From positions 9,305 through 41,304 of the forward strand of contig CAZHYN010000016.1 in assembly GCA_964536865.1 (NCBI GenBank): a stretch of 32,000 bases of DNA, read 5' to 3'. The DNA comes from an uncultured Planctomycetia bacterium (GTDB lineage: Bacteria; Omnitrophota; Gorgyraeia; Duberdicusellales; 4484-171). Position numbers and translations under genes: made by a program. The notes under the pieces are model-generated. The model had not been told where the DNA came from, searched no databases, and was given only the letters and a program-made list of their open reading frames with translations. Shown here in pieces: positions 11,339-30,967 of the stretch. Position 1 is the stretch's first letter. Every line of letters begins with the position of its first letter.

Positions 11339-11360
11339 ATAAAAACTATCAAGGAGGTGA

Positions 11361-13910: not shown

Positions 13911-13918
13911 GCAGAAGG

Positions 13919-14365: not shown

Positions 14366-14382
14366 AATTTTGGGAGGCTGTG

Positions 14383-15306
14383 ATGGAGATAGCTAATAGC
14401 GTGATTGAATTAGTAGGTAATACCCCTCTGGTAAGATTAAATAAGATAGGTAAGGATTTGGATGTAGATTTAATAGCTAAATTAGAATTTTTTAACCCCC
14501 TTTCTAGTTTAAAAGATAGGATTGCTGTAGCTATGATTGAAGATGCAGAAAGAAAGGGAGTAATTAGAGAAGGGGCCACCATTATTGAACCTACTAGTGG
14601 TAATACTGGGATTGCCTTGGCTTTTGTATGTGCAGTAAAAGGCTACAGATTAATTATCACCATGCCAGAGTCAATGTCAGAAGAAAGAAAACGTTTACTT
14701 AAAGCCTTAGGAGCGGAGGTGGTACTAACCAAGAATAGAGAAGGAATGAAGGGGGCAATAAAGAAAGCCGAAGAACTTCTCAAAGAAATTCCCGACTCTT
14801 TTATGCCTCATCAGTTTAATAACTTGGCTAATCCCCATGCTCATTATAAGACTACGGGCGAGGAGATTTGGCAGGATACCCAAGGAAGGGTAGATATAGT
14901 TGTTGCTGGTGTGGGTACTGGAGGAACTATCACAGGTGTTGCTCAACTGATAAAGAAAAGAAAGAAGGAATTTAAGGCGATAGCAGTGGAGCCTCAAGAT
15001 AGTGCTATTCTCTCCGGGGGACATCCCGGGCTCCATAAAATTCAGGGAATTGGAGCAGGGTTCGTTCCTCAGGTTTTAAACTTAGATTTAATTGACGAGG
15101 TAGTAGCTGTATCTGACGAAGAAGCTGCCCAGTTAACTAGGCGATTGGCTAAAGAGGAGGGGATTCTTGCGGGAATATCTAGTGGGGCAGCAGTAGCTGG
15201 TGCTTTAAGAGTTGCTCAAAGAGAAGAGAATAAAGGGAAGTTAATAGTAGTTATACTTCCTGACACAGGAGAAAGATATCTTTCTACTTGGGTTTTTAAA
15301 GATTAA
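14383..15306 (+). CDS. cysK: Cysteine synthase A (O-acetylserine sulfhydrylase)
   Basis: PLP-lysine motif SSLKDR, substrate loop [12 protein letters not shown] and [13 protein letters not shown] at 14383 lies 5 nt after GGGAGG; a GTG at 14380 is also possible. Confidence 0.92.
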
Positions 15307-15340
15307 ACAAACTTCTATATAAGCAAATAAAAAGTTAGGT

Positions 15341-16270
15341 ATGGTTAGAGATACTTTGTTTACTGATGAAGAGAAGCTAAAAGAGGCAATTATAAGGTTG
15401 AAAAAGAAAAAAGAAGCTGTGATTCTAGCTCATAATTATCAGATATCCCAAATCCAAGATGTAGCCGACTTTGTAGGTGATTCCTTAGAATTAGCAAAAA
15501 TTTCTGCTAAAGTTGATGCTTCCTTAATAGTTTTTTGTGGAGTTTACTTTATGGGAGAGACTGCCAAGATTCTTTCCCCCCAAAAGAAGGTGCTTATTCC
15601 TGTAGCTAGTGCCGGCTGTCCACTAGCAGATACTATTATTCCTAAAAAACTTTTGGAGTTAAAGAATGTTTACCCGGAGGCGTGGGTGGTAAGTTATGTT
15701 AATACTTCCGCAGAGATTAAGGCGTTGACAGATGTCTGTTGTACTTCCAGTAATGCTGTCCAAGTAGTAAAAAATATTCCTGCTAAAAAAGTTATATTTG
15801 TTCCTGATAAAAACTTAGGATGGTGGGTTAAAAGAAATGTCCCTCAAAAAGAGATAATTCTCTGGGAAGGGTTTTGTTATGTGCATCAGAATTTTACCTT
15901 AGATGATTTACATAAGCTGAGGAGTAAATTTCCTCATGCGCAGGTATTTGTCCATCCTGAGTGTAAGCCAGAAATTTTACAAGACGCTGATTTAGTTTTG
16001 TCTACTTCAGGGATGCTAAGTGAAGCAAAAAAGTCATCAGCAAAAGAAATCATTATTGGAACTGAAGAGGGTTTAATTTACAGATTAAAGAAAGAAAATC
16101 CTGAGAAGAAGTTTTACCCTTTAAAGAAAGCTGAGTGTGTAGATATGAAGAAGATTACCTTAAAAGAGCTTTACTTAGCTTTAGAACACCAAAGATATGC
16201 TATAGAGTTGTCTCCCCAGATTATTCAAAGAGCTCAGAATTCTCTTAGGGAAATGATAAAGTATACCTAA
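15341..16270 (+). CDS. nadA: Quinolinate synthase
   Basis: ILAHNYQ, GDSLELA and FCGVYFMGETAKIL motifs, with the conserved Cys-containing segments typical of NadA; 309 aa. Confidence 0.9.
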   Translation: MVRDTLFTDEEKLKEAIIRLKKKKEAVILAHNYQISQIQDVADFVGDSLELAKISAKVDASLIVFCGVYFMGETAKILSPQKKVLIPVASAGCPLADTIIPKKLLELKNVYPEAWVVSYVNTSAEIKALTDVCCTSSNAVQVVKNIPAKKVIFVPDKNLGWWVKRNVPQKEIILWEGFCYVHQNFTLDDLHKLRSKFPHAQVFVHPECKPEILQDADLVLSTSGMLSEAKKSSAKEIIIGTEEGLIYRLKKENPEKKFYPLKKAECVDMKKITLKELYLALEHQRYAIELSPQIIQRAQNSLREMIKYT

Positions 16271-16275
16271 AATAA

Positions 16276-17172
16276 ATGAAGTGCAGAATATGTAAAAAGG
16301 AAGCCAACATAACTTTAAAGAGTTACAATCTAAATCTCTGTCCCGATTGTTTTTTAGAATTCTTTAGGAAAAGAGTATATACTACCATAAATGAGTTTAA
16401 AATGTGCACTCCTAAGGATAGGATTTTGGTTGCTGTATCAGGTGGAAAAGATAGTTTATCTTTATGGCACATTCTTAATGATTTGGGATACAGAACCTGT
16501 GGACTTCATATTGTCTTAGATATAGAAGAATATTCTCAAAAGTCTTATCAAAAGGTAATAAAATTTGCTCAAACTAAAGATTTGGAGATTAGGATAGTGA
16601 GTGTAAGGGATGAGTTCGGCAAGAGTATAAGAGAGCTTGCTAGGATAGCTAAACGTCTTCCTTGTAGAGTTTGTGGAATGATAAAAAGATATCTGATGAA
16701 TAGAGAGGCTAAGGATTTTGATTGTTTAGCTACCGGTCATAATTTAGATGATGAAGCCAGCACTCTCTTAGGGAATCTCCTTAACTGGCAGGAAGGATTC
16801 TTAACTCGGCAGTCTCCGGTTTTGGAAGAAAATTATACTCTCAAGAGAAAAATTAAACCTTTTGCTTTTATTTCTCAAGAAGAAATTGCTCTGTATGCTG
16901 AGTTATGTGGTATAGATTATCTAAAAGAGGAGTGTCCTTTTTCTAGAACAGCTACTTCTTGTATCTACAAAGGAGTTCTGGATAAGATTGAGGAGGAGAT
17001 GCCTGCAACTAAGTTAAGATTCTATAAGGGATTTATTAGGAAGGAATATTTCAAGAGAGAGAAGAAGGATAAACTCTCTCCTTGTAAAAGTTGTGGTTAC
17101 CTCACAATAGGGGAAGTTTGTAATTTCTGTAAGTTAAAGGAGAAAGTTTTAGAGGGAGAAGGTTCTTATTAA
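16276..17172 (+). CDS. ttuA: TtuA/Ncs6-type PP-loop tRNA 2-thiolation enzyme (predicted [4Fe-4S]-dependent)
   Basis: N-terminal Zn finger CRIC...CPDC, PP-loop VAVSGGKDSLS, central PCRVCG plus ECPFS cysteines, and C-terminal Zn finger CKSC...CNFC. Confidence 0.75.
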   Translation: MKCRICKKEANITLKSYNLNLCPDCFLEFFRKRVYTTINEFKMCTPKDRILVAVSGGKDSLSLWHILNDLGYRTCGLHIVLDIEEYSQKSYQKVIKFAQTKDLEIRIVSVRDEFGKSIRELARIAKRLPCRVCGMIKRYLMNREAKDFDCLATGHNLDDEASTLLGNLLNWQEGFLTRQSPVLEENYTLKRKIKPFAFISQEEIALYAELCGIDYLKEECPFSRTATSCIYKGVLDKIEEEMPATKLRFYKGFIRKEYFKREKKDKLSPCKSCGYLTIGEVCNFCKLKEKVLEGEGSY

Positions 17173-17183
17173 AGGAGGGGACG

Positions 17184-17957
17184 ATGTTGGAAGAGATAAC
17201 TATCTCAAGAGCAATCATTGATTCTTATTGGAAGAAACTCGGTAAAATTTTGGAAGTGGATGTGGCTATCTGTGGTGCCGGGCCTTCGGGATTAGTTTGT
17301 GCAACCACATTAGCTAAGAAGAAGAGAAAGGTAGTAATATTTGAGAAGAAGCTTTCTATTGGTGGAGGGATGTGGGCAGGAGGTATGTTTTTTAACGAAA
17401 TTGTAGTCCAAGCATCAGGCAAGAAGATTTTAGAGGAGTATAAAGTGAGACTAAGAAAGTATAAAAAGGAATATTACCTTGCTGATGCTATTGAATGCGT
17501 ATGTAGTTTAGGATATCATGCTGTTAAATCAGGAGTAATTATTATTAATGGAGTATCTGTTGAGGATGTTGTAATAAGAAAGAACAGGATTTGTGGGGTA
17601 GTGATAAATTGGTCAGCAGTTGAACTGACTAATTTAGACGTTGATCCTTTAGCAGTGAGAGCTAAATTTGTTGTAGATGCCACAGGACACTCTTCAGATG
17701 TGGTGAGGATTGTGGAAGAGAAGAGTGGGTTGAAACTTAATACTGAGATTGGGAAAAGAGTTGGAGAAAGGTCTATGTGGGCGGATTTGGCAGAAAGTAT
17801 GGTGGAAAAGAATACTCAAGAGGTTGTTCCAGGCTTAGTAGTAGCAGGGATGTGTGTCAATGCTGTATTTGGTTCACCACGGATGGGACCTATCTTTGGG
17901 GGGATGCTTCTTTCAGGGAAAAAAGCGGCAGAAATCATTCTTTCTAAGATTAAATGA
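17184..17957 (+). CDS. thi4: Thiazole synthase Thi4 family (archaeal-type, probably sulfide-dependent)
   Basis: Dinucleotide fold DVAICGAGPSGL, then GGGMWAGGMFFN and VVDATGHSSDV. That segment has no Cys where eukaryotic suicide Thi4 carries ..CGH... Confidence 0.85.
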   Translation: MLEEITISRAIIDSYWKKLGKILEVDVAICGAGPSGLVCATTLAKKKRKVVIFEKKLSIGGGMWAGGMFFNEIVVQASGKKILEEYKVRLRKYKKEYYLADAIECVCSLGYHAVKSGVIIINGVSVEDVVIRKNRICGVVINWSAVELTNLDVDPLAVRAKFVVDATGHSSDVVRIVEEKSGLKLNTEIGKRVGERSMWADLAESMVEKNTQEVVPGLVVAGMCVNAVFGSPRMGPIFGGMLLSGKKAAEIILSKIK

Positions 17958-17981
17958 TTTAAACTTATATTTTAATTACAA

Positions 17982-19028
17982 ATGGATAGAGAGAGAATAG
18001 CTGTGGCTTTAAGTGGAGGTGTTGATTCTGCATATTCTGCTTACCTTCTTAAGAAAGAAGGGAAGGAGCTGGTAGGAGTAACTTTTAAACTTTCTTTCTT
18101 TAAAGAGGAAAATATTCGAAAAGCACAGTATGTATGTAACTTTTTGGGAATTCCCCATCATCTAATTGATGTTAACCAAGAGTTTAAGAATATTATAGAT
18201 TACTTTGTCAGCTCTTACTTAGACGGTTTAACCCCTAACCCTTGCGCTTTATGTAATCAAATCATTAAGTTCGGAAAACTCTTAGATTATATACGTATGT
18301 TAGGTTGTTATTATTTAGCTACCGGGCATTACTGTCGACTAATTAAAACTGAAAAAGGTGAAATATACTTAGCTAAAGGAAGGAGTATGTTTAAGTCTCA
18401 AGAGTACTTTTTGGCATTAACTCCTAAAGAGAAGTTTAATTCAGTAATTTTCCCTCTAGGAGACTATACTAAAGAGGAGGTTAAAAGGAATATTCAAAAG
18501 GAAGGGTTTTACCCTTTCCCTATCGAAGAGAGTAAAGAGGTGTGTTTTATAGGGAATAGTACCTATAAGGATTTTATTAGAAAACGTATCTTAAGAGATG
18601 GTGATTATTCGGGACAGATAAAGCATCATAATGGGAAAGTCTTAGGAACTCACCAGGGAGTTTATTTTTTTACCTATGGACAAAGAGAGGGATTGGGGGT
18701 TTCTTGGAGAAAGCCTTTGTATGTAATGGACATCCTTCCTTCAAAAAGAGAAGTGATTGTAGGAGAGAGAGAGTTTATTCTAAAGGAGCGTTTCTTTGTA
18801 AACCACATAAATTGGTTTTACCCTCCTTCTAATTATCGGAATTTGAGAGTTAAGCTTCGTTATAACTCCTACTCTTTACCTTGTGATATAGAAATTTCTT
18901 CTCATAATCGGATTCTGTGTATTTTAAAAGACAAAAGAGAAATTCCTGCTCCGGGGCAGTTAGCTGTTTTCTATGATAGAGATTTAGTAGTTGCTGGAGG
19001 ATTAATTGAGAAAGAAAGTGCTTCTTAA
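17982..19028 (+). CDS. mnmA: tRNA-specific 2-thiouridylase
   Basis: PP-loop IAVALSGGVDSAY, catalytic-Cys contexts NPCALCNQ and EVCFIG, and ATGHY. Confidence 0.9.
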   Translation: MDRERIAVALSGGVDSAYSAYLLKKEGKELVGVTFKLSFFKEENIRKAQYVCNFLGIPHHLIDVNQEFKNIIDYFVSSYLDGLTPNPCALCNQIIKFGKLLDYIRMLGCYYLATGHYCRLIKTEKGEIYLAKGRSMFKSQEYFLALTPKEKFNSVIFPLGDYTKEEVKRNIQKEGFYPFPIEESKEVCFIGNSTYKDFIRKRILRDGDYSGQIKHHNGKVLGTHQGVYFFTYGQREGLGVSWRKPLYVMDILPSKREVIVGEREFILKERFFVNHINWFYPPSNYRNLRVKLRYNSYSLPCDIEISSHNRILCILKDKREIPAPGQLAVFYDRDLVVAGGLIEKESAS

Positions 19029-19077
19029 GAAAAACTGAAGCGGTAGATTTGGAAGGGTTTGTCCCTGCAGGATTAAG

Positions 19078-20064
19078 ATGAAGGCAGTCTCTCTATTCTC
19101 AGGAGGTTTAGATAGTATTTTAGCTACCAAAATTATAAAGGAGATGGGTATAGAGGTAGAAACTATACACTTTTGGAGTTTATTTTCCCCTGCCACCTAC
19201 CAAGAGACAGTTAAAAAGTTATCATTTTTTACAGAGAAACTAGGGGTTTCCCTTCATATAGAAGATATAACTCTTCAGCTCTTAGAAAAGGTAAAAAACC
19301 CTCGCTATGGCTACGGGAGTTGTCTTAATCCTTGCATCGATTGTAAGATTTTAATGTTTAGGAGGGCAAAAGAGTATATGGAAGATGTAGGAGCGAAGTT
19401 TTTGATAAGTGGGGAAGTATTAGGAGAACGTCCTTTCTCTCAGAGGAGAGGGGCTTTAGCGATAATAGAGAGAGAAGCTTCAGGGGAAGGAATAATTTTG
19501 AGACCTTTATCTGCAAAATTGCTAAAGTCAACTATTCCTGAGAATAAAGGATGGGTTAAGCGGGATAAACTTTTTGCTATAAAAGGAAGTAAGCGAAGAC
19601 CCCAGATAGAGTTAGCAAGAAAATTGAAGATTTACTCTTATCCTTCTCCTGCAGGAGGATGTCTCCTTACCGACAAAAATTTCTCTAAAAAATTGCAGGA
19701 TTTATTTTCTTACTCTAAAGATTTTGGAGTAAGAGATGTATTTCTTCTTAAGATAGGAAGACACTTTCGCCTCTCCCAGAGAGGGAAGTTGATCGTTCCT
19801 CGCAACGAGAGAGAGGAGCAGAGACTATTAGAGAAGAAGGAGGAAGCAGATACCTTATTTGTCCCTTTAGATGACGGAAGAAGATGTTTAGGAGTGGGGT
19901 CGTTAGATACTGATGATATCCAGTTAGCTACTCGGATAGTTGCTTCATATGTTAAGAGAGACTCTTATCCTAAGAAAATAAGGGTTATCTCTTTCTGGGG
20001 AGAGAAGGAATTAGAGGTAAACCCTTTATCCTCTCAGGAGTTAGAGAGTCGACGAATAAGTTAG
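19078..20064 (+). CDS. Orphan PP-loop (adenine nucleotide alpha-hydrolase) protein, ThiI/MnmA-related, no THUMP or rhodanese domain
   Basis: PP-loop AVSLFSGGLDSILA, Cys cluster CLNPCIDC plus downstream GGC, ThiI-like GEVLGERPFSQ, and a ~130-aa C-terminal region I cannot assign. Confidence 0.65.
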   Translation: MKAVSLFSGGLDSILATKIIKEMGIEVETIHFWSLFSPATYQETVKKLSFFTEKLGVSLHIEDITLQLLEKVKNPRYGYGSCLNPCIDCKILMFRRAKEYMEDVGAKFLISGEVLGERPFSQRRGALAIIEREASGEGIILRPLSAKLLKSTIPENKGWVKRDKLFAIKGSKRRPQIELARKLKIYSYPSPAGGCLLTDKNFSKKLQDLFSYSKDFGVRDVFLLKIGRHFRLSQRGKLIVPRNEREEQRLLEKKEEADTLFVPLDDGRRCLGVGSLDTDDIQLATRIVASYVKRDSYPKKIRVISFWGEKELEVNPLSSQELESRRIS

Positions 20065-20090
20065 GTAAAATTTATTTTTTTCTTGAGAAA

Positions 20091-20119
20091 TGGACAAATT
20101 AGTGGTATTATTCTATAAT
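20091..20119 (+). promoter_or_regulatory. Sigma-70-type promoter for the HD-GYP gene
   Basis: TGGACA (20091-20096), 17-nt spacer, TATAAT (20114-20119). A GAAGGAG SD precedes the ATG at 20138. Confidence 0.5.
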
Positions 20120-20137
20120 TATCGGTAAGAGAAGGAG

Positions 20138-21658
20138 ATGGGAGAAGGTAAGATTTTAATTATTGATAATGATGTTGAGTTTCCACAGAAGCTAAGTAGC
20201 TTCCTAAAAGAACAGGGTTATATTCTTCATGTTTATCAAGAAAGTAGAAAAGGTTTAGATGCTTTCCTTAAGGAAGAGTTTGATGTGGTGATGGTAGAGC
20301 TAGCTATGCCTCAAATGAATGGGATCGAGGTTATAGAGGAGATTAAAAAAATTGATCCCGAAAGTATAACTATTATTATGACTACTCAACCTTCTCTGGA
20401 GACAGTTCAAAGAGCAATAAGAGCAGGGGCATTTGACTATATTACCAAGCCTTTTAGTAAAGAGGAAATCTCATTCGTAATGAAAAGAGCACTTGCCTTT
20501 CGCAATTTAAGTGTAGCTAGAAGGAAACTTATGGAGGAGTTAGAGAAACAGAATGTAAGGTTAGAGCGCCAGATTAAAGAAAAGACAAAAGAGTTAGCTC
20601 TTATATACCAAGTAGGTAGAGATATTTCCTCCACACTGAACTTAGAAGAAATTTTAGAGATTATCTTAGATAGAGTGTGTGTAGTATTGAACATAGAAAA
20701 ATGTTCTATTCTTCTATTGGATGAGGGTAAGGGAGAGTTATATATAAGAGCTGCTCGAGGTCTATCGGAGGATGTTATAATTCAAACAAGACTTAAAGTA
20801 GGTGAGCCTATCTCTGGATGGGTACTTAAAAATAAGAAGCCCGTGTTTGTAGAAGACATAGAGAAAGATCCTCGTTTTGCTCGAAGAAACTATGAGAGGT
20901 ATTATACACACTCTTTTATCAGTGTGCCTTTGATAGTGAAAGAAGATGCTATTGGGGTGATAAATGTGAATAATAAGAAAACAAGACAGCCTCTCACTGA
21001 GGATGATTTCAGAATCGTGAAAGGAATAGCTAACAAGGCATCTATAGCTGTAGAGAATGCCCGTCTTTATTCTACCTTGGAAGATAGTTATATTCGAACA
21101 GTCACTGCTCTTACTTCAGCAATTGATGCTAAGGATCATTATACTAAGAGTCATTCAGAACATGTTTCTCAGTATGCGGTAGCTATAGGGAGGGAGATGG
21201 GTTTATCAGACCGTGAGATTGAAGAAATTCGTCAAGCTTGTCAACTTCATGATTTAGGAAAAATTGGAGTCCACGATTATATTCTTACTAAACCTGGCAA
21301 ACTTACTCCTGAGGAGTGGGAGGAGATAAAACAGCATTCCTTAAAAAGTGCGGAGATATTGAAGCCTCTAATTTTCTTAGGAGGAGCTATTGATTTGATA
21401 AGGCAGCATCACGAGAGGTATGATGGGAAGGGGTATCCTTACGGTCTTAAAGGCGAGGAAATAAAGCTAGGAGCAAGGATAATAGCAGTAGCTGACAGTT
21501 TTGACGCTATGACTACCGATAGACCTTATCGTCGAGCACGCACTAAAGAAGAAGCCATTGAGGAAATTAAAAAATGTAGTGGCACCCAGTTTGATCCTAA
21601 AGTTGTAGAAGCTTTTTTAAGGATAGTGGACAAACTTCCTCCTAAACCCAAAAAGTAG
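20138..21658 (+). CDS. REC-GAF-HD-GYP protein (RpfG-like c-di-GMP phosphodiesterase) with an atypical receiver
   Basis: The receiver fold (ILIIDND...VVMVELAMPQMNG...IIMTT...YITKPF) has Glu54 at the acceptor position. A GAF-like middle region follows. The HD-GYP core is intact: HDLGKIG and HHERYDGKGYP. Confidence 0.88.
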   Translation: MGEGKILIIDNDVEFPQKLSSFLKEQGYILHVYQESRKGLDAFLKEEFDVVMVELAMPQMNGIEVIEEIKKIDPESITIIMTTQPSLETVQRAIRAGAFDYITKPFSKEEISFVMKRALAFRNLSVARRKLMEELEKQNVRLERQIKEKTKELALIYQVGRDISSTLNLEEILEIILDRVCVVLNIEKCSILLLDEGKGELYIRAARGLSEDVIIQTRLKVGEPISGWVLKNKKPVFVEDIEKDPRFARRNYERYYTHSFISVPLIVKEDAIGVINVNNKKTRQPLTEDDFRIVKGIANKASIAVENARLYSTLEDSYIRTVTALTSAIDAKDHYTKSHSEHVSQYAVAIGREMGLSDREIEEIRQACQLHDLGKIGVHDYILTKPGKLTPEEWEEIKQHSLKSAEILKPLIFLGGAIDLIRQHHERYDGKGYPYGLKGEEIKLGARIIAVADSFDAMTTDRPYRRARTKEEAIEEIKKCSGTQFDPKVVEAFLRIVDKLPPKPKK

Positions 21659-21988: not shown

Positions 21989-23017
21989 ATGAGGGAAAGG
22001 AAGTTTATAGATTTATCTATGATCTCTGAAGAGGAACTTCTCAATTTAAAAATCTGTGATCTTCCTCTAAAAATAGAGGGTACATGGCTCCAAGGATGTG
22101 TAGAGCAGCTCTATCAGGAGTTAGAGAAGAAAGGAATAAAATTTAAGCCTCCCTGTTACTTGGCAGACGAGTGGCTTACTCCTGACGGTGAACCGGTAAT
22201 AGGTATCCCTTTTTTCTTAGCTCATCCTACACTTATGAAATTAGAGAAAAAGATGATGCTTGATGTAGAAGGAGAAACTAAGGGCTGGTGTATGAAACTG
22301 TTGCGTCATGAAAGCGGCCATGCTATAAACTATGCCTATAGGTTGTATAGACGGAGAAAGTGGCAGAAAATTTTTGGAAAGTTTTCCCAAGTTTACTCAG
22401 ATACTTACCGTTTCCGTCCTTATAGTAAAAGTTTTGTACGCCATCTAGAGGATTACTACGCTCAGTATCATCCCGATGAAGATTTTGCGGAAACTTTTGC
22501 TGTTTGGCTTACTCCCGGTTCTAATTGGCAGGAGGCTTATAAGGGATGGAAGGCCTTAGAGAAGTTAAATTATGTAGAGGAATTAATGGAAGAAATAAAG
22601 GAAAAGCCACCTCTCGTTAAACGAGGGAGAAGGTATTGGCATATTAATTCCTTAAGAATCACTCTTAAAAATTATTATAAGAAAAAAAGGCTCTACTATG
22701 CAGAGTATTTTCCTGATTTTCACGATGTAAATCTAAAGAAGATATTTGCAGAAAAAAATCTTCATTCTCAAGAAGGGTTATCTGCTAAGGATTTAATAAA
22801 GAGATATAGGAAGCAAATTCTAAATAATGTTTCTGAATGGACTGGAGAGAAAAAGTACGTAATTGCCGACCTTTTAGATACTATAGGGGAAAGATGTGAT
22901 AGTCTTAACCTTAGGATAATTGAGTCGGAGAGTTCCGCTCTTCTTAAATTTTCTACCTATATTACTACTCTCATTATGAATTATCGTTATACAGGGAGAT
23001 TTCAAAAGACAAAATGA
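21989..23017 (+). CDS. Putative zinc metallopeptidase (zincin HExxH), otherwise uncharacterised
   Basis: HESGH at aa 107-111, with downstream acidic YHPDEDFAETFAVW (aa 160-173) as the candidate third ligand. No signal peptide. The C-terminal ~140 aa carry no recognisable motif. Confidence 0.7.
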   Translation: MRERKFIDLSMISEEELLNLKICDLPLKIEGTWLQGCVEQLYQELEKKGIKFKPPCYLADEWLTPDGEPVIGIPFFLAHPTLMKLEKKMMLDVEGETKGWCMKLLRHESGHAINYAYRLYRRRKWQKIFGKFSQVYSDTYRFRPYSKSFVRHLEDYYAQYHPDEDFAETFAVWLTPGSNWQEAYKGWKALEKLNYVEELMEEIKEKPPLVKRGRRYWHINSLRITLKNYYKKKRLYYAEYFPDFHDVNLKKIFAEKNLHSQEGLSAKDLIKRYRKQILNNVSEWTGEKKYVIADLLDTIGERCDSLNLRIIESESSALLKFSTYITTLIMNYRYTGRFQKTK

Positions 23018-24030
23018 GGAGGAGATTAAAAGTTTTGTTAGTATTTGATACGCCTTATCATACGCCTCGAGGTTATAACTTTGAAAAGGAGTTTAAAGAG
23101 CTTGACTGGGTAACAGAGAGAGACGTTTATTCAGCTCTCTTAGAGAACGGTTATGATGTTATTCTCTTGGGGCTCTATGATGATATAAAATTACTCTTTG
23201 AGGAAGTGAAAGAAAATAAACCTGAGGCTATTTTCAATCTTACTGAGGTATTTAAGCAGAAAACTTATTTAGAAAAGAATGTAGCCTGGATTTTAGAAAT
23301 TCTGGGTATTCCTTATACTGGTGCTACTCCAACTAGTCTTCTTATCTGTAATAATAAAGCTCTAACTAAAAAGATACTGACCTTTCATAAGATTCGTGTT
23401 CCCAATTTTTATACATTTTATAAGCATCGCAAGGTCAAATTTATCCGGAGGTTAAAACTTCCTCTCATCGTAAAGCCTCTGTATGAGGAAGCTTCACGGG
23501 GGATATCTCAAGCTTCGGTAGTTGATAGTGAGGAAGGATTAATTGAGCGAGTAAAATTTATCCACACTCACCTCAATATGGATGCTATTGCTGAGGAGTA
23601 CATTGATGGGAGAGAGCTTTACGTGAGTGTATTAGGGAACAAGCGGATAAAAGTTTTACCTTTTAGAGAGATGAAATTTGGTAAGATTCCTGAAGATGAA
23701 CCTCGTATTGCTACTTACAAGGCTAAGTGGGATTATAGATATCGGGAAAAGTGGGAAATTAAAAATGTTTTTGCTGGTAGATTACCTTCAGGGTTGGATA
23801 AGAAAATTATCGAAATTTGCAAACGTGCTTATCGAGCTCTTAATATGCAATGTTACGCTCGCTTCGATATAAGGATTACATCTCAAGGAGAAGTTTATAT
23901 TATTGAAGCAAATGCTAACCCCTGTTTGGGTAGAACTGATGAGCTTGCTCAATCAGCAGAAAAAAGTGGTATTAGTTATAATAAGCTAATTCAAAAGATA
24001 ATAAACCTTGCTCTAAAGAGGCCAGTTTAA
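23014..24030 (+). CDS. D-alanine--D-alanine ligase-like ATP-grasp ligase (non-housekeeping context)
   Basis: ATP-grasp motifs LPLIVKPLYEEASRGIS, AEEYIDGRELYVSVLG and RFDIRI...YIIEANANP. ATGA overlap with the peptidase gene. Confidence 0.85.
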   Translation: MRRRLKVLLVFDTPYHTPRGYNFEKEFKELDWVTERDVYSALLENGYDVILLGLYDDIKLLFEEVKENKPEAIFNLTEVFKQKTYLEKNVAWILEILGIPYTGATPTSLLICNNKALTKKILTFHKIRVPNFYTFYKHRKVKFIRRLKLPLIVKPLYEEASRGISQASVVDSEEGLIERVKFIHTHLNMDAIAEEYIDGRELYVSVLGNKRIKVLPFREMKFGKIPEDEPRIATYKAKWDYRYREKWEIKNVFAGRLPSGLDKKIIEICKRAYRALNMQCYARFDIRITSQGEVYIIEANANPCLGRTDELAQSAEKSGISYNKLIQKIINLALKRPV

Positions 24031-24495
24031 ATATTATCCTGAAGTTCCCCCAAAATTTAGACATCCTTTTGTCTAACAGTATATGATTCAGTAAGATAAG
24101 AAAATTGAAATCTGCGCTTTTTAGAAAAATATTTTTGTTGTAAAAATAGGAAAGAGTTTTCCCAAAATTTTGAAAGGCTAATATAATATTTTCAATACCT
24201 TTAGAAAAGCCAACTTTACAAAAGATGCACTTTTAAGAAGAAATGAGTTCCCCTGGCCATATTTAAAAATATAGGCCTGAGAAATGATTGGGATACCTGA
24301 ATCTGAATAATTATCATGTGCGTTTGTAAAGCACGAATAGGTGGTTAGAGTAAGACTCTATTGATAAGATATTTTTAGCAAGAAATTAACTATTGACAAA
24401 CTCTTTCATAGGCGGGAAAACCCCAGTAAAATATTATCTTTTTGTTCTCACTATTTATGATATAATAATGTAGCTAATTACAAATTTGAAGAAAT

Positions 24496-25908
24496 ATGTT
24501 TAGAGAATTCCTTAATTTTCTTCCTGATATAGTTTACCTTAAAGATTACGAAGGCAGATACTTATGGGCTAATAGAACCTTTCTACAGTTTTTTGGGAAA
24601 GAAGAGAAAGAGGTAATAGGTAAGGTAGATAGCGAAGTTATTCCTCAAGAGCTTGCTGTTCAGTGGCAGACTTCAGATAGAGAAGTTATTTCTCTTAAGA
24701 AACCAATTATAAGAGAGGAACATTTAGGAGAAATTATTTTTGAAACGATGAGGTTCTTGGTTCCCCTTAGTGAAGGGAAAATAGGAGTTGCGGGATACTC
24801 TCGTGATGTAACTCTTCACAAGAAAATGGAAGAGAGTTTGAAAGCAAGTGAGGAGAAGTATCGAATCATTGCTGAGAATGTGAATGACATAATTTGGGGT
24901 ATAGATATGGACTTAAGAGTTGTCTATATAAGTGCTTCTTTGGAACACATTTTGGGGTATAAACCGGAGGAATTGATAGGTAAAAGTTTAGAGGAGATAT
25001 TGCCCCCAGGGGAATATAAGAAAATGAAAAAAATTCTGGAGGAAGAGTTGACTCGAGAGGAAGAAAAAGGAACAGACAAATTGCGTTCGAGGACTTTTGA
25101 GATTAAGTATATTCATAAAAGTGGTCACCCTGTATTGTTGGAGGTTAAAGCTAATTTTATCCGTAACCAAGACGGTGTTCCTACTGGTATTTTAGAAGTG
25201 GCTCGAGATGTCACCCAAAGGAAGGAGATGGAGGAGACTCAGCGGCTTTCTCAATTAGGTAAGCTTGTTGCTGATATTGCTCATGAAGTAAATAATCCTC
25301 TTATGATTATTTCAGGGAGGGCTCAACTTGCTCTTATGGAGGAAATATCTGATCCAGAGGTTAAAAAGACTCTAGAGATTATCCTAATTGAATGTCAGAG
25401 AGTAAAGGATATTATCCAGAGAATTCTCAGATACTCTCGTCCTGGTAAGGGTGAATTTAAAGAGCTCAATATAGAAAGAGTTATAGAGGATGTAGTTGCA
25501 ATTTTGGAACACCAGTTTCAATTAGTTAATATCTCCATAGTAAGAAACTATACTCCTAACTTACCCCAGGTATGGGCGGATGATAAGCAAATTGAAGAAG
25601 TGCTGATGAACCTATTGATTAATGCTAGAGATGCTATGCCTGAGGGAGGAAAAATAGAGATAAGTACATCTTCTCAGGATAATTTCTTAAGAATAGATAT
25701 AAAAGATACAGGTACAGGTATGAGTAAAGAAGTTCTAGATAGGATATTTGAACCATTTTTTTCTACTAAGAAGAGAGGCACAGGATTAGGTGTCTCTATA
25801 TGTTATAATATAATAAAAGCTCACAAAGGAGAGTTGAAGTTCGTAAGTGCCCCCGGGAAGGGTACTACTGTTACTATACTTTTACCTTTTTTGAAAAAAG
25901 ATGGCTAA
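24496..25908 (+). CDS. Soluble PAS-PAS histidine kinase
   Basis: Two PAS-like regions, H-box ADIAHEVNNPL, N-box LLINARDAM, G1 DIKDTGTGM and G2 GTGLGVS. No TM segments. Confidence 0.9.
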   Translation: MFREFLNFLPDIVYLKDYEGRYLWANRTFLQFFGKEEKEVIGKVDSEVIPQELAVQWQTSDREVISLKKPIIREEHLGEIIFETMRFLVPLSEGKIGVAGYSRDVTLHKKMEESLKASEEKYRIIAENVNDIIWGIDMDLRVVYISASLEHILGYKPEELIGKSLEEILPPGEYKKMKKILEEELTREEEKGTDKLRSRTFEIKYIHKSGHPVLLEVKANFIRNQDGVPTGILEVARDVTQRKEMEETQRLSQLGKLVADIAHEVNNPLMIISGRAQLALMEEISDPEVKKTLEIILIECQRVKDIIQRILRYSRPGKGEFKELNIERVIEDVVAILEHQFQLVNISIVRNYTPNLPQVWADDKQIEEVLMNLLINARDAMPEGGKIEISTSSQDNFLRIDIKDTGTGMSKEVLDRIFEPFFSTKKRGTGLGVSICYNIIKAHKGELKFVSAPGKGTTVTILLPFLKKDG

Positions 25909-26278
25909 GATTTTAGTTATTGATGATGAGCATCAGATTTTAGATATTTTGGAGAGATTTCTAACTAAGATGGGGTTTCAAGTTATTACTGCCTTGGGAG
26001 GAGAAGAGGGAATAAAAGCAATTAATTCTCAGGATGTGGATCTTATTCTCTTAGATATGAAGATGCCTAAAGTAACAGGAATTGATGTATTGAAAGAATT
26101 AAAAGAGAGAGAAAAGAAGGTTCCTGTTATTATTTTAAGTGGTTCTTTAGGGGTAGTAAGAGAAGTCCATCTTCTAGAAGAGTTAGGGCATACTCAGGAA
26201 GATATTGTTACCAAACCTATAGACCTTTTTAATCTCCTAGAAAAAGTTAGGAGCAAATTACCTAGAGAGATTGTTTAG
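25901..26278 (+). CDS. Single-domain response regulator (CheY-like receiver)
   Basis: ILVIDDE, LILLDMKMP, IILSGS and VTKPID: all canonical receiver residues. 8-nt overlap (ATGGCTAA) with the kinase gene. Confidence 0.9.
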   Translation: MAKILVIDDEHQILDILERFLTKMGFQVITALGGEEGIKAINSQDVDLILLDMKMPKVTGIDVLKELKEREKKVPVIILSGSLGVVREVHLLEELGHTQEDIVTKPIDLFNLLEKVRSKLPREIV

Positions 26279-26283
26279 CTTCT

Positions 26284-27060
26284 ATGGGGCAGAGGGTTTT
26301 AATTGTAGATAGTGACATAGAGGCACGCAATACTTTTTATGAGATACTTTCTTCCTTAAATTATGAGCCTACCTGTGTACCCACAGCTAAAGAAGCTCTA
26401 AACAGACTTACTGAGGAGAGGTTTGATCTTATCATTTTAGAGAGAGATATGCCTGATTTAGATGGGGTAGATATTGTCAGGAAGATAAGGGAATTTGATA
26501 AGGATACTAAGATTGTGTTACTCTCTCGAGAAGATCCAGAAAGATCTATTTTATCTTTAGCTCATCAGTTAAATATCCAGAGGGTGTTAAAAAAGGACTT
26601 CTCTACTCATATGATGATGAGAGATATACTAGGTACTTTAAGAGAAAAGCGCTCATCTCCTCAACCTTCTTCTCTTTTTAAAAATTTCTCTATTCTCATA
26701 GTTGATGATAATCCTCAGGTAAGAGAAACTCTTCAGATTTTCCTAGAGAAAAAGGGTTTTAAAGTTCTAACAGCATCTTCCGGAGAAGATGCTGTTATGA
26801 AAGTGAAGCTGGGGGAGCCTAAGGTAGTTATTTTGGATATAAGGATGCCAGGAATGGATGGGGTAGTAGTGTTAAGAAATATAAAACAACTCAATCCTTC
26901 TATCAAAGTGATCGTGCTTACTTCAGTTAGAGATGATTATATCATGAAGGAAGCTCGGCGAGAAGGAGCTTCTGAGTATTTGGTTAAACCTTATGATCTT
27001 GAAAAATTAGATAATATAATTACTTCTTTACTTTTACAAAAAAGGAGTGAAGATGGATAA
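26284..27060 (+). CDS. Dual-receiver protein (degenerate REC + canonical REC), no output domain
   Basis: REC1 is VLIVDSD...LIILERDMPDLDG, with Glu53 at the acceptor position. REC2 is ILIVDDN...VVILDIRMPGMDG...VLTS...LVKPYD, which is canonical. Confidence 0.88.
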   Translation: MGQRVLIVDSDIEARNTFYEILSSLNYEPTCVPTAKEALNRLTEERFDLIILERDMPDLDGVDIVRKIREFDKDTKIVLLSREDPERSILSLAHQLNIQRVLKKDFSTHMMMRDILGTLREKRSSPQPSSLFKNFSILIVDDNPQVRETLQIFLEKKGFKVLTASSGEDAVMKVKLGEPKVVILDIRMPGMDGVVVLRNIKQLNPSIKVIVLTSVRDDYIMKEARREGASEYLVKPYDLEKLDNIITSLLLQKRSEDG

Positions 27061-27799
27061 GAAAATCTTAGTCGCTGAAGGTGAAGTGGGAATTCGTCAA
27101 CAATTCTATGATAGTTTAACGCATGCAGGTTATAAAGTAGTAACTACTCATCACGGAAAGCATGCATTCGAACTATTTACTACTCAGAAGCCAGATTTAG
27201 TGCTTCTAGATTATGCTCTTTCTGATGAAAGTGGTATTGAGGTACTTAGGAAAATAAAAGAGATAGATAAAAAAGCAAAAGTAGTTATGCTTGGTAGTCC
27301 TGTTGAATCAGAGTTAGAGAAGGAAGCACGACTATTAGGAGCTAGTGGTTTTCTTCCTAAAAGTTTAGAAGGAGGAGCTATTGTTGAAGCAGTTGATCGG
27401 ATAATGGGAAAATCAATCGAGGAGAGAAAAATTCTAGTAGTCGATGATGATTCTCAAATTTGCTCTCTCATAGAAGATTTCTTAACGAAAAAAGGATTCA
27501 GAGTAATCGTTGCCTATAGTGGTGAGGAGGGTTTGGAGAAATTTAAAAAAGAGAGACCAATTTTGGTTCTTCTTGATGTAAGGTTACCAGGTATGGATGG
27601 GATAATGACTCTAAAACGAATTAAAGAGATTGACCCCCGAGTAGGAGTAATTATGGTAACCGGCCTAAAAGATGAAGATACCTTTAATGAAGCAAAGAAA
27701 TTAGGTGCTCACGAGTATGTGGTGAAACCTTTTGATTTAGATTATTTAGATACCTGTGTCCTTGTACGTCTGTGTCTTGTTTCAGCTCTTTTAAGATAA
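27053..27799 (+). CDS. Dual-receiver protein (degenerate REC + canonical REC), paralog of 26284-27060
   Basis: REC1 is ILVAEGE...LVLLDYALSDESG: the acidic pair is lost and the acceptor Asp is kept. REC2 is ILVVDDD...LVLLDVRLPGMDG...MVTG...VVKPFD. ATG at 27053 follows AAGGAG and gives an 8-nt ATGGATAA overlap; the track's GTG at 27047 is less likely. Confidence 0.88.
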   Translation: MDKKILVAEGEVGIRQQFYDSLTHAGYKVVTTHHGKHAFELFTTQKPDLVLLDYALSDESGIEVLRKIKEIDKKAKVVMLGSPVESELEKEARLLGASGFLPKSLEGGAIVEAVDRIMGKSIEERKILVVDDDSQICSLIEDFLTKKGFRVIVAYSGEEGLEKFKKERPILVLLDVRLPGMDGIMTLKRIKEIDPRVGVIMVTGLKDEDTFNEAKKLGAHEYVVKPFDLDYLDTCVLVRLCLVSALLR

Positions 27800-27825
27800 C
27801 TTTTTGGTTAACTCTTATGTAGAAG

Positions 27826-29157
27826 ATGGAAGGAGAGAAGGTTAAAGTATTCCTTGTTGAAGATGATTTTTCGGTGTTTTCTCTCGTTAAGGAGATGTTA
27901 GCTAAATTGAGAGGTTACTCTCTGGAAGTAGATGGAGCACCTAGCTTAAATGAGAGTATAGAGAAACTGCAGAGTAAAAAGGTAGATGTTATTCTTTTAG
28001 ATCTAAATCTACCAGATAGCAAGGGTGAAGATACTTTTTTGAAGTTATACCAGAAATTTCCTCAACTTCCTGTAGTAGTTCTTACTGGTTTTGATGATGA
28101 AGAGTTGGCTGTTAAAGTAGTACGCCAAGGTGCTCAGGATTATTTGGTAAAAAGTAGAGTGGATGCTTATCTAATGATGAAGGCTATTTCTTACGCTATC
28201 GAACGTAAGCGGATAGAGGAAGCGTTACGGAAGGCACGTGATGAATTAGAGCTACGAGTTAAGGAGCGGACTGCAGAACTAGTAAGAGTTAATGAATATC
28301 TTAAACAAGAGATAGAGGAGCGTAAGAGAAAAGAGGAAGAATTACGTATTACCTATATTAAATTAAAGGAAGCTCAACAACAGTTAATTCAATCAGCAAA
28401 GATGGAGGCGGTGGGAGTTTTAGCTGGTGGTGTAGCCCACGAGGTTAAAAATCCTTTAGCAATCATTCTTCAGGGAATTGAATATCTCTCTAAGAAGATT
28501 GAAACTGATAACGAGAATATAAAATCTACTTTAAAATATATGAAAGAAGCAGTGATAAGAGCAGACACTATTGTTAAGGGACTCTTAGATTTCTCTAGAA
28601 TTTCCAAACTGGATATAGCTAAATATAACATTAATTCATTAATAGAGAATTGCTTATTACTAATGAAACATCAGCTTGATAGACACCATATTCGTGTGAT
28701 AAAAGAGTTAGGGGAAGATACCCCTGAACTTAATGTAGATAAGAGTAAGATAGAACAGGTATTCATAAATATTTTTATGAATGCTGTTCATGCTATGCCA
28801 GAAGGAGGAGAGCTTATCGTAAGAAGCTATGTTAAATCTCTAACCGAAGATACTCTACCTTTCCAAGTTGAAGGGAAAGAGAAATTTAATCTTGGTGAGA
28901 AAGTAGTGGTAGTTGAAATAGAGGATACAGGTAGTGGTATTCCTCAGGAACTTTTAGATAAAGTGTTTGATCCTTTTTTTACTACTAAACGTGCTAAGGG
29001 AGGTACAGGTTTAGGTCTATCTATAGTGAGAAATATAATGGAGATGCATAATGGAAGGATAGATATCAGAAATAGAAACGAAGGGGGTGTGATTGTGAGT
29101 TTGTTATTTAAAAGAGGAGGAGGCCAATATGGAGAAAAAGAAGATACTAGTAGTTGA
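27826..29157 (+). CDS. Hybrid REC-coiled coil-histidine kinase
   Basis: N-terminal receiver FLVEDD...VILLDLNLPDSKG...VLTG...LVKS, a long charged helix, H-box GGVAHEVKNPL, N-box IFMNAVHAM, G1 IEDTGSGIP and G2 GGTGLGLS. Confidence 0.9.
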   Translation: MEGEKVKVFLVEDDFSVFSLVKEMLAKLRGYSLEVDGAPSLNESIEKLQSKKVDVILLDLNLPDSKGEDTFLKLYQKFPQLPVVVLTGFDDEELAVKVVRQGAQDYLVKSRVDAYLMMKAISYAIERKRIEEALRKARDELELRVKERTAELVRVNEYLKQEIEERKRKEEELRITYIKLKEAQQQLIQSAKMEAVGVLAGGVAHEVKNPLAIILQGIEYLSKKIETDNENIKSTLKYMKEAVIRADTIVKGLLDFSRISKLDIAKYNINSLIENCLLLMKHQLDRHHIRVIKELGEDTPELNVDKSKIEQVFINIFMNAVHAMPEGGELIVRSYVKSLTEDTLPFQVEGKEKFNLGEKVVVVEIEDTGSGIPQELLDKVFDPFFTTKRAKGGTGLGLSIVRNIMEMHNGRIDIRNRNEGGVIVSLLFKRGGGQYGEKEDTSS

Positions 29158-29503
29158 TGATGAGGAGAGTTTTGCTCAAATGGTGAAGCTGAATCTCGAA
29201 GAAACAGGGAAATATGAGGTTATGGTAGAAACTAAAGGCAAGGAGGCTATACTTACTGCTAAGAGATTTAAGCCTGATTTAATATTTTTAGATATAGTAA
29301 TGCCTGATGTAGACGGGGGTGAAATTGTGCAAAAGATGAAGTCCGATGAGGATTTAAAAGATACCCCTGTGGTATTTCTTACTGCTTTAGTTACAGAGAA
29401 AGAAGTAAAGTCCCAAGAAGGAGTTATAGCTGGACGCCCCTTTTTAGCCAAGCCAGTAACTACCCAACAACTTATTGAGTATATTGAAAAATATATAAGA
29501 TAA
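29129..29503 (+). CDS. Single-domain response regulator (CheY-like receiver)
   Basis: ILVVDDEE, LIFLDIVMPDVDG, VVFLTAL and LAKPV. GAGGAGG SD. 29-nt overlap with the kinase gene. Confidence 0.9.
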   Translation: MEKKKILVVDDEESFAQMVKLNLEETGKYEVMVETKGKEAILTAKRFKPDLIFLDIVMPDVDGGEIVQKMKSDEDLKDTPVVFLTALVTEKEVKSQEGVIAGRPFLAKPVTTQQLIEYIEKYIR

Positions 29504-29537: not shown

Positions 29538-30344
29538 ATGAGGAACAAGTTGTTACCTTATTTTCCAGATTTCTTTTATAACCTCTCTAGAGTAAAAATT
29601 ACTTCTATCCTTATTACCATTAATGTAGGGATATTTCTCATTATCCATATTATTCCTAGCTTTCCTTGGGTTTACCTATTAGGTCTGGTGCCTAGTTTGG
29701 TATTTTCTAAGTTAATGTTTTGGCAATTCTTTACTTATATGTTTATCCATGTAGGGGTTATGCATCTTGCAATAAATATGCTGATGTTATGGTTCTTTGC
29801 TTCTGGTATAGAGAGTTTATGGGGGAAGAAAAAGTTTTTATTTTACTATTTTTTTACCGGTGTAGGCGCAGGTTTTTGTAGTTTTCTTTTTTCAGGGGCT
29901 CCCTATACGGTAGTGATTGGTGCTTCAGGGGCGATCTTTGGGATTTTAGTGGCTTACGCAGTGATGTACCCTGAGAGTACGATTTTGTTGTTCTTTTTCT
30001 TTCCCATGAAGATGAAGTATGCTATTTTGGTATTAGGGGGAATAAATCTTTTAGGGGCTCTTTTCTCTCCCGGGAGTGGTATTGCTTATCTTGCTCATTT
30101 AGGAGGAGCTCTTTTTGGATATATTTATTTAAAAAGAGAACTACTATTCTTTAAGTTTTCTCACTCCTTTTTTCTTTTTAAACAATGGTTAATAAGGAAA
30201 AGAGAATATAGAAAAAAACTATATCAGGACAAGATTAAGAAGGAAGTCGATCGTATCTTAGACAAAATAGCTAAACACGGAACAGCTAGCCTTAGTAAAG
30301 AGGAAAAGAAATTTTTGAAACTTAAGAGCGAAGATTATTTTTGA
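29538..30344 (+). CDS. Rhomboid-family intramembrane serine protease with a Lys-rich cytoplasmic tail
   Basis: Catalytic Ser motif GASGAIFG and His motif AHLGGALFG, with six or more hydrophobic helices. It lies 34 nt downstream of the two-component operon. Confidence 0.88.
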   Translation: MRNKLLPYFPDFFYNLSRVKITSILITINVGIFLIIHIIPSFPWVYLLGLVPSLVFSKLMFWQFFTYMFIHVGVMHLAINMLMLWFFASGIESLWGKKKFLFYYFFTGVGAGFCSFLFSGAPYTVVIGASGAIFGILVAYAVMYPESTILLFFFFPMKMKYAILVLGGINLLGALFSPGSGIAYLAHLGGALFGYIYLKRELLFFKFSHSFFLFKQWLIRKREYRKKLYQDKIKKEVDRILDKIAKHGTASLSKEEKKFLKLKSEDYF

Positions 30345-30903: not shown

Positions 30904-30967
30904 AAAAGGGTTGAAGGATCTTAGAGCCGCAAGGCTTCTAAGGTGGTGTAAGCCTTGCGGCTTTTTT
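30904..30967 (+). ncRNA. Candidate ~65-nt short transcript or attenuator leader (promoter to terminator)
   Basis: Defined only by the promoter at 30870-30897 and the intrinsic terminator at 30926-30967. No homology is claimed. Confidence 0.25.
30926..30967 (+). terminator. Rho-independent terminator
   Basis: Perfect 12-bp stem GCCGCAAGGCTT (30926-30937) / AAGCCTTGCGGC (30950-30961), a 12-nt loop, then TTTTTT (30962-30967). Confidence 0.85.

Follow-up and report, generated by a model that had tools for sequence, protein, structure and literature searches.

In Myxococcus xanthus, the genes for a sensor kinase (nmpU), a protein with two receivers (nmpT) and a receiver-bearing kinase (nmpS) are adjacent; NmpU phosphorylates NmpT, at a first receiver (REC1) that has been proposed as a phosphate sink, as well as the NmpS receiver, keeping NmpS off, and NmpS phosphorylates NmpR alone (Bretl et al. 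2018, PMC6211767). The specificity residues barely differ between the two substrates of NmpU, and Nmp-homologous gene sets have been reported from Planctomycetes (PMC6211767). In the Lvr system of Leptospira, LvrA phosphorylates the receiver (Rec) of LvrB, upon which a signalling-helix coiled coil forms and the catalytic domain is freed; LvrB in turn phosphorylates LvrC, an effector that the lvr locus had not revealed and that emerged from a screen of the organism's 50 response regulators (Agustoni et al. 2026, PMC13269768). In the RedCDEF system of M. xanthus, RedE did not autophosphorylate in vitro and was termed a histidine-kinase-like protein (Jagadeesan et al. 2009, PMC2755868). Here we describe a cluster of six two-component genes at 24496-29503 on the + strand of a 32,000-nucleotide stretch of an Omnitrophota contig (CAZHYN010000016.1), the whole of which is referred to below as the window. 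The system is specific to Omnitrophota and elaborates the Nmp/Lvr/Red-type multi-component designs rather than being a new kind, and it does not overturn the current understanding of two-component systems.

Bacteria of the Omnitrophota, which are often ultra-small and may depend on hosts, have not been cultured, and their signalling is essentially unstudied. As a conserved, phylum-specific elaboration of the cascade that leads from a sensor kinase to a Rec-controlled kinase, the cluster is a tractable test case, and it could reveal how stand-alone receivers and pseudo-receivers shape signal flow without a transcription factor.

Gene content and catalytic residues of the cluster

Pfam searches assigned the six proteins, in gene order, as PAS-PAS-HisKA-HATPase (HK1, 24496-25908, 470 aa), a single receiver domain or REC (R2, 25901-26278, 125 aa), REC-REC (RR3, 26284-27060, 258 aa), REC-REC (RR4, 27047 or 27053-27799), REC-HisKA-HATPase (RHK5, 27826-29157, 443 aa) and REC (R6, 29129-29503, 124 aa), all on the + strand. 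For RR4, the ATG at 27053 was also chosen by gene callers on identical contigs and gives a protein of 248 aa. HK1 and R2 share an 8-nt overlap (ATGGCTAA, 25901-25908) of a type also found in five related loci (L085, L090, L091, L094 and L097); R2 and RR3 are 5 nt apart, RR3 and RR4 again overlap by 8 nt (ATGGATAA, 27053-27060), RR4 and RHK5 are separated by 26 nt, and R6, which has a strong Shine-Dalgarno sequence (AGAGGAGGAGG), overlaps RHK5 by 29 nt (29129-29157). The six open reading frames (ORFs), their overlaps and gaps and their domains are as described in an earlier note that was made from the letters of the window. In the survey of Williams and Whitworth, foci of four two-component system genes (tetrads), the largest class tabulated, accounted for only ~1.3% of such genes (PMC3018481).

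The earlier note had called the operon output-less, which is accurate for the operon itself. At E<=0.01, no Hpt, HTH, enzymatic or other output family was matched by Pfam in the six proteins, and a Kyte-Doolittle scan found no transmembrane (TM) segment in them; the rhomboid protein used as a control gave several. No GAFTGA motif of sigma-54 activators occurs in the 32-kb window. All NCBIfam matches fell far below the family cut-offs, with no named equivalog for any of the six proteins; the best scores were obtained with AtoS/NtrB-type models for the kinases and AtoC/NtrC-type models for the receivers. When all window ORFs were scanned with hidden Markov models, REC was found only in the cluster genes and in one upstream HD-GYP gene, and the kinase cores numbered two. 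The six proteins lack the Hpt domain of a classical His-Asp-His-Asp phosphorelay, and since the intergenic gaps are 34 nt or less, there is no space for a concealed HPt gene. The earlier note had also regarded the exit of the signal as a puzzle. Although the operon does lack an output, this is not anomalous, because LvrC, too, came to light only through a screen of the response regulators of the genome and single-domain receivers are a recognised output class.

To read the active sites, the receivers were aligned with CheY, Spo0F and NtrC at the positions of CheY D12, D13, D57, T87 and K109. The count of seven receiver domains given in the earlier note is correct for REC folds, but the full set of acidic pair, acceptor Asp, Thr/Ser and Lys is present in only five: R2, the C-terminal domains of RR3 and RR4 (RR3-C and RR4-C), the RHK5 receiver and R6. 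Only these five would be chemically competent in this genome. R2 (D-D-D-S-K-P), R6 (D-D-D-T-K-P), RR3-C and RR4-C are canonical, and the RHK5 receiver reads E-D-D-T-K. The N-terminal domains of the tandem proteins depart from the canonical pattern. RR3-N (D-S-E-S-K) has D13S and D57E and carries Lys-Asp in place of Lys-Pro, within the hallmark KKDFSTH; RR4-N (E-G-D-G-K), degenerate in the window, has D12E, D13G and T87G and retains D57, the metal-binding pocket and the Thr being lost. In an AlphaFold model (mean predicted local distance difference test score, pLDDT, 86), RR3 formed two REC folds joined by a disordered or flexible linker (residues 123-130), and its best full-length fold matches were the tandem-REC stems of Caulobacter PleD and 3luf. 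Like RR3, the PleD stem (1w25, 2v0n) and 3luf combine one canonical and one adaptor-like receiver in tandem; unlike them, RR3 and RR4 have no GGDEF domain and carry their canonical and atypical domains the other way round, and identity is only 18-23%. The C-terminus of RR4 (27740-27799) is a hydrophobic, Cys-bearing tail (CVLVRLCLVSALLR) that lies near the hydropathy threshold.

Both kinases have an HExxNPL H-box (HEVNNPL in HK1, HEVKNPL in RHK5) and complete N, G1, F and G2 motifs, as read from the translations. The soluble HK1 corresponds, at 40-47% identity, to the C-terminal portion (PAS-PAS-DHp-CA) of the 1057-1185-aa TM-Cache-PAS(n) kinases that stand first in the cluster of most relatives, and it lacks their N-terminal TM-Cache-TM-PAS(n) region. 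A short soluble form of HK1 also heads the full cluster in L097. The first kinases of relatives are of the Cache-PAS or HAMP-PAS-GAF type, and protoglobin was seen only in L016 and L011.

By sequence and by structure model, gene 5 encodes a predicted Rec-controlled histidine kinase of the LvrB type. Its receiver (Pfam, residues 8-111) has the equivalent of Asp57 and, as in LvrB and NmpS, a receiver with an acceptor Asp is followed by a signalling helix, a DHp His and a complete CA domain. The best sequence match in the PDB was Leptospira LvrB (8vc9). In the AlphaFold model (42 homologues; mean pLDDT 81), the receiver spans residues 1-113, DHp helix 2 230-260 and the CA domain 264-430, and a single uninterrupted helix (114-224) enters the H-box; the top Foldseek match to this model was full-length LvrB (8vc9; E 1e-21, ~435 columns). 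RHK5 homologues are very abundant in Omnitrophota, and the family of Rec-controlled kinases is much larger than the RR3 family.

Comparison with described systems and conservation in Omnitrophota

The closest characterised system is NmpU/T/S/R and not RedCDEF, which the earlier note had proposed; its appeal to the multi-component systems of Myxococcus was apt, but NmpU-NmpT-NmpS and LvrA-LvrB-LvrC match better. As in Nmp, a sensor kinase, a tandem receiver and a REC-kinase are encoded contiguously, an arrangement that is kept in relatives of the cluster, and the kinases and receivers are nearest to the NtrB/AtoS and NtrC/AtoC types. The sensor of the cluster, however, is of the PAS-PAS type (Cache-PAS in relatives), whereas that of Nmp is a protoglobin; R2 and the second tandem receiver RR4 have no counterpart in Nmp; the canonical domain is C-terminal in the tandem proteins here, whereas NmpT is phosphorylated at REC1; and the regulator coupled to RHK5 is a bare receiver, whereas that of Nmp is an NtrC-like sigma-54 activator, of which the window contains none. 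A planctomycete locus that matched the RR3 profile at 26% identity (L016) encodes a protoglobin-kinase, a REC-REC protein, a REC-PAS-kinase and a REC, and a second planctomycete locus (L011) has the same layout of sensor kinase, tandem receiver and REC-kinase.

RHK5 shares with LvrB the architecture Rec, signalling helix, DHp and CA; in both systems an upstream kinase feeds a Rec-controlled kinase (here as a proposal), and neither kinase has an output domain. The identity of RHK5 to LvrB is only 22-24% over the Foldseek alignment, the helix from the receiver to the phospho-acceptor His is ~50 residues longer in RHK5, LvrC combines a REC with an anti-sigma-factor protein whereas the partner coupled to RHK5 is a bare receiver, and tandem-receiver genes are absent from Lvr. 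With RedCDEF, the cluster has in common at least four two-component proteins without DNA-binding output, the order kinase, dual receiver, second kinase-like protein and single receiver, and a single receiver as effector, for which R6 is a candidate here. Unlike RedE, RHK5 has a receiver and a complete catalytic domain, and Red lacks both a second tandem receiver and an extra receiver coupled to the first kinase. RedC is membrane-bound.

A protein search with RR3 returned a compact family of ~28 full-length relatives (42-100% identity), all named ones from Omnitrophota, which share an invariant KKDFS where receivers usually have Lys-Pro. Proteins identical to RR3 are encoded on a contig of a metagenome-assembled genome (GCA_021162445.1) and on several metagenome contigs labelled Omnitrophica/Omnitrophota. 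Gene contexts were taken from the contigs encoding RR3 relatives and from a metagenome scan with the N-terminal half of RR3 (pattern [VIL][ILV]KKDFS[TNS][HP]), which gave 35 true loci; the contexts were annotated with custom REC and kinase-core profiles and by BLAST against the window proteins. A scan of genome contigs with the full RR3 alignment led to the generic pattern LDxRMPG[ML]DG and recovered almost only unrelated receivers, plus planctomycete Nmp-like loci.

The complete order of sensor kinase, R2, RR3, RR4, Rec-kinase and R6 was found in at least five Omnitrophota lineages at ~50-60% protein identity: in L097, on a 1.87-Mb contig (58%), in L098, in L090/L104 (54%) and, as far as the contig extends, in L105, as well as in L094/L095, where R2 to R6 are 81-91% and HK1 70% identical to the window proteins and no frameshifts occur. 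Three loci (L085, L089 and L091) have no RR4 and carry two or three single receivers after the Rec-kinase; in four (L096, L101, L110 and L005) the second kinase is a receiver-less membrane kinase; in L088 and L107 the cluster ends after RR4; and in six (L087, L119, L121, L122, L127 and L128) RR3 is solitary or next to unrelated kinases. The nucleus of kinase, R2 and RR3 recurs in ~20 loci, and each REC is most similar to the window REC of the same slot, a position-by-position orthology. Since synteny is conserved, the cluster is a selected module, and the chance juxtaposition of independent pairs that the earlier note had considered was not borne out. Two loci among the more distant dual-REC matches were rejected, L092 (P0044), which has no gene order in common with the cluster, and L093 (P0031), which is a different multi-REC cluster. 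In the second-kinase slot of L096 (3952-5181) and L101 (10752-11948) we found a multi-pass membrane protein with an H-box-like helix, no Pfam match to HisKA or HATPase and no ATP-binding motif that we could recognise, a possible pseudo-kinase that brings RedE to mind.

The catalytic residues were also compared over the loci. RR3-C reads DDD[TS]KP in 38 of 38 sequences, RR4-C DDDTKP in 14 of 14, and the R2 orthologues DDD[ST]KP in 18 of 19; R6 is canonical in all nine and the RHK5 receiver reads E-D-D-T-K in all eleven. These acceptor sites are, to judge from such constancy, under purifying selection. RR3-N, whose active site is relaxed throughout the family, always has Lys-Asp and has often lost the second acidic residue, and its acceptor is replaced by Glu, Ala or Asn in six lineages, that of the window included. 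RR4-N is canonical (D-D-D-T-K) outside the window lineage. Signatures in helix 1 also follow the slot across lineages: R2, RR3-C and RR4-C belong to one class, R6 and the additional terminal RECs to a second, and RR3-N and RR4-N to a third, and the RHK5 receiver has a signature of its own, unlike that of the R2/RR3-C/RR4-C class.

The window lineage thus carries a pared-down version of the system: its sensor is soluble, and the N-terminal receivers of both tandem proteins and the receiver of the HD-GYP protein are degenerate. What distinguishes the system most is the RR3-type atypical receiver, along with the natural Asp-to-Glu variants, and the relatives with canonical receivers and a membrane sensor, set against the window lineage with Glu or degenerate receivers and a soluble sensor, provide a natural experiment in receiver degeneration.

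A proposed branched cascade and its alternatives

We propose, with a probability of about one half, that a module A (HK1-R2-RR3-RR4) and a module B (RHK5-R6) are joined at this locus into a branched phosphorylation cascade of two tiers. A Rec-kinase and an R6-like receiver occur alone as a two-gene module in L132, which points to the six-gene cluster as a junction of the two modules. The PAS domains of HK1 would sense a cytoplasmic cue and trigger its autophosphorylation, and HK1 would then pass phosphoryl groups to R2, RR3-C and RR4-C, with their one shared helix-1 signature, and also to the N-terminal receiver of RHK5. Phosphorylation of this receiver may alter the long signalling helix and turn the kinase core on or off, by analogy with LvrB and NmpS, and RHK5 would in turn set the phosphorylation state of R6, which would bind a target encoded elsewhere, most plausibly in cyclic di-GMP (c-di-GMP) or type IV pilus control. 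RR3 and RR4 may influence threshold and timing as phosphate sinks or adaptors, a role that has been proposed for NmpT, and their atypical N-terminal domains would work without phosphorylation in this genome.

Several observations weigh against this cascade. The lineage is uncultured and known from metagenome-assembled genomes; the sequences establish the domains, the catalytic residues, the conservation and the LvrB-like architecture, whereas we infer every phosphotransfer arrow, the direction in which RHK5 is regulated and what R6 binds. The helix-1 signature of the RHK5 receiver differs from that of the class assigned to HK1, so the specificity residues give the step from HK1 to RHK5 no support, and a different kinase could feed RHK5, such as an orphan Cache kinase that is encoded ~2.4 kb downstream, just beyond the window. 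The occurrence of module B alone in L132 likewise means that some other kinase can feed a Rec-controlled kinase. Given that RR3-N, RR4-N and the receiver of the HD-GYP protein are degenerate and that HK1 lacks a membrane sensor, the pathway may have undergone rewiring or partial decay. HD-GYP proteins, moreover, are common outputs of two-component systems in these organisms, so their proximity to the cluster (within 10 kb in ~4 of the ~14 lineages with enough flank) could be partly background.

Alternatively, two separate units may lie side by side, HK1 acting with R2, RR3 and RR4, and RHK5-R6 being independent; the orphan Cache kinase or another membrane sensor, for example, would then phosphorylate the RHK5 receiver in place of HK1. 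Besides the free-standing pair in L132 and the distinct helix-1 signature of the RHK5 receiver, the presence of module A without module B in L088 and L107, the absence of a regulator adjacent to the orphan TM-Cache-HisKA kinase and the far larger size of the Rec-kinase family compared with the RR3 family favour such independence. However, the two modules lie next to each other on one strand, with tight spacing, in at least seven lineages (41-60% identity), genes 4 and 5 are split by only 26 nt with no promoter- or terminator-like break, and in L123 an RHK5-type receiver, fused to HD-GYP, is placed between the sensor kinase and R2, and we regard two separate units as rather unlikely. We give still less credence to a timer of the RedCDEF kind, in which a tandem receiver phosphorylated by HK1 would pass its phosphoryl group to the DHp His of RHK5, and RHK5 would act mainly as a phosphatase of R6. 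The order of kinase, dual receiver, kinase and single receiver is shared with RedCDEF (PMC2755868), any Asp-to-His step would, with no HPt at hand, need a DHp domain, and both kinases have an HExxN motif. This motif is associated with phosphatase activity. Nevertheless, all of the N, G1, F and G2 boxes are complete in RHK5, which also has an N-terminal receiver, whereas RedE did not autophosphorylate in vitro, and the RHK5 architecture is that of LvrB and NmpS, two kinases whose forward cascades have been demonstrated.

It is equally doubtful that the cluster of this genome is a partly decayed remnant whose membrane sensor was lost and in which three receivers were inactivated, with little or constitutive signalling and with Glu57 as a fixed phosphomimic. 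The missing TM-Cache-PAS(n) region of HK1, the ~400 nt inserted in the promoter-proximal intergenic region and the confinement of the RR3-N D57E, RR4-N E-G...G and HD-GYP receiver D-N-E forms to the window lineage or its closest kin are in line with decay. Against this, the six ORFs are intact with conserved overlaps and Shine-Dalgarno sequences, the five canonical receivers and both kinase cores retain every catalytic motif, the 81-91% identity to L094/L095 (70% for HK1) is free of frameshifts, and the full cluster of L097 likewise begins with a short soluble HK1. The branched cascade remains our preferred reading, and a bolder one is a long shot: that the RR3 family is a new class of phosphorylation-independent receiver adaptor, that RR3 and RR4 couple HK1 to RHK5 by heterodimerising with the RHK5 receiver, and that R6 is a phylum-wide effector of the c-di-GMP or type IV pilus machinery in Omnitrophota. 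The N-terminal receivers of the RR3 family are marked by an invariant Lys-Asp for Lys-Pro, the motif KKDFS[TN]H and an acidic pocket that is frequently lost. Were this adaptor reading true, the signal would pass from kinase to kinase through a pseudo-receiver scaffold and not by phosphotransfer.

Candidate outputs and neighbouring genes

R6 is the best candidate for a diffusible terminal output. It is coupled to RHK5, and its best 120 homologues are all stand-alone RECs of ~125 aa, nearly all 55-70% identical to it, a conservation that exceeds that of every other component of the cluster; the helix-1 signature shared among terminal RECs and the free-standing pair in L132 likewise favour R6. 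In L132, this pair is followed (11872-20676) by exopolysaccharide genes, namely a Bac_transf phosphoglycosyl transferase, Poly_export, a weak AAA_31 match and Polysacc_synt. A 2025 paper reports the activation of such a phosphoglycosyl transferase by a single-domain regulator (PMC12802240).

The earlier note had named two further candidates. The REC-GAF-HD-GYP protein, of the c-di-GMP phosphodiesterase type, is encoded outside the operon (20138-21658, + strand), 2.8 kb 5' of HK1. Proteins of this kind recur in the relatives L090, L123 and L087, but the receiver of the window protein reads D-N-E (D13N, D57E), with no acceptor Asp, so direct phosphotransfer to it is unlikely. This form is restricted to the window lineage; the L090 orthologue, which lies beside the cluster and is 51% identical, has a canonical receiver. 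Genes for PilZ and REC-GAF-HD-GYP proteins adjoin the cluster in L090, and PilZ and two HD-GYP proteins flank the orphan RR3 of L087. In L097 and L098, four extra genes immediately 5' of the cluster and on the same strand (L097 2455-8149) give a ten-gene signalling supercluster; they encode a REC, an MshEN-T2SSE ATPase with a C-terminal REC (701 aa), a HAMP-PAS-HisKA-HATPase-GGDEF-REC protein (929 aa) and another REC. In L123, the cluster itself includes a 349-aa protein composed of REC, signalling helix and HD-GYP (4380-5429), which up to residue 154 (the REC and the start of the helix) is 49% identical to RHK5 1-154 and then continues into HD-GYP without a kinase core. It looks like a domain swap, with a phosphodiesterase placed behind the same input module instead of a kinase core, which points to c-di-GMP as the output currency. 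Taken together, the neighbourhoods of relatives link the module to c-di-GMP and pilus genes in a way that is suggestive but not conclusive. RR3 homologues fused to HD-GYP (P0042/P0051) were rejected as members of the same cluster; their locus is a simple 7TM-kinase followed by two REC-HD-GYP genes.

The second candidate, a rhomboid-family membrane protease gene (29538-30344, + strand), begins 34 nt after R6 and is probably co-transcribed with it, because no terminator-like site lies between them. As an output it was rejected on synteny: it follows the cluster only in the window lineage and in L094/L095, a relative with 78-92% identity over these genes, and in other lineages the gene 3' of the cluster encodes PilZ/HD-GYP, glycogen phosphorylase, RadC, ribosomal protein L21 or polyprenyl synthetase. 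The first terminator-like hairpin with a T-run 3' of the cluster, a pattern match from a consensus scan, lies after the YqeY gene (30950-30963, + strand). On the 5' side, a candidate extended -10 promoter element (TGATATAAT, 24458-24466, + strand) was read from the sequence ~30 nt 5' of HK1. The block around it (24415-24495) is kept in L094, with TGGTATAAT, and the rest of the intergenic region is not. Consensus scans for promoters and terminators gave matches at background level (41 versus 33.9 expected and 8 versus 7.2 expected, respectively), and their results were never used as evidence alone. An Rfam scan of the whole window found no RNA family, and the 466-nt leader 5' of HK1 is therefore not explained by a known one. 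Within this leader, ~400 nt of AT-rich DNA (24047-24446) lie between the upstream ATP-grasp gene and the conserved promoter-proximal block, bordered by imperfect 19-nt direct repeats (24029-24047 and 24429-24447), with no ORF and no Rfam match. This segment is missing in the close relatives L094/L095, and a near-identical strain (L002/L003) lacks 169 nt within it (24246-24414); it resembles a small mobile element or the footprint of an insertion.

The orphan membrane kinase (TM, Cache-like sensor, TM, HisKA-HATPase; 566 aa) ~2.4 kb 3' of R6 was located at 15877-17577 of L001 and 16461-18161 of L094, with no response regulator from there to the end of L094, ~2 kb further on. With its surplus receivers, the cluster might take additional input from this kinase. 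The idea that it represents the ancestral Cache sensor, split off from the cluster, was rejected, as the kinase cores align and the sensor regions do not. In L090, where two large Cache/PAS kinases stand at the head of the cluster, the gene directly 5' of them encodes a KaiB-family protein (2294-2557, 87 aa, Pfam E 3e-18).

Between the HD-GYP gene and the kinase operon of the window, a putative zinc metallopeptidase (a weak Peptidase_Mx match, below the Pfam cut-off) and a D-Ala-D-Ala-ligase-like ATP-grasp enzyme are encoded with a 4-nt overlap (21989-24030, + strand). The pair is kept with both neighbours in L094/L095 and possibly serves peptide ligation or modification. Further upstream, a 101-aa PilZ-domain protein (5418-5723, + strand; Pfam E 9e-12) overlaps the end of tyrS by 14 nt, and the region 5799-13749 (+ strand) encodes a sugar ABC uptake system and, after it, three large proteins of secreted or lipoprotein-like character; weak glycoside-hydrolase matches (GH2 / GH72-like) were found for two of them, and the third has no Pfam match and contains two halves that resemble each other. 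Over the window as a whole (1-32000), G+C is ~36%, all convincing genes lie on the + strand, and GC skew is positive in each 1-kb bin (0.10-0.45), which suggests a strong strand bias or a long leading-strand block.

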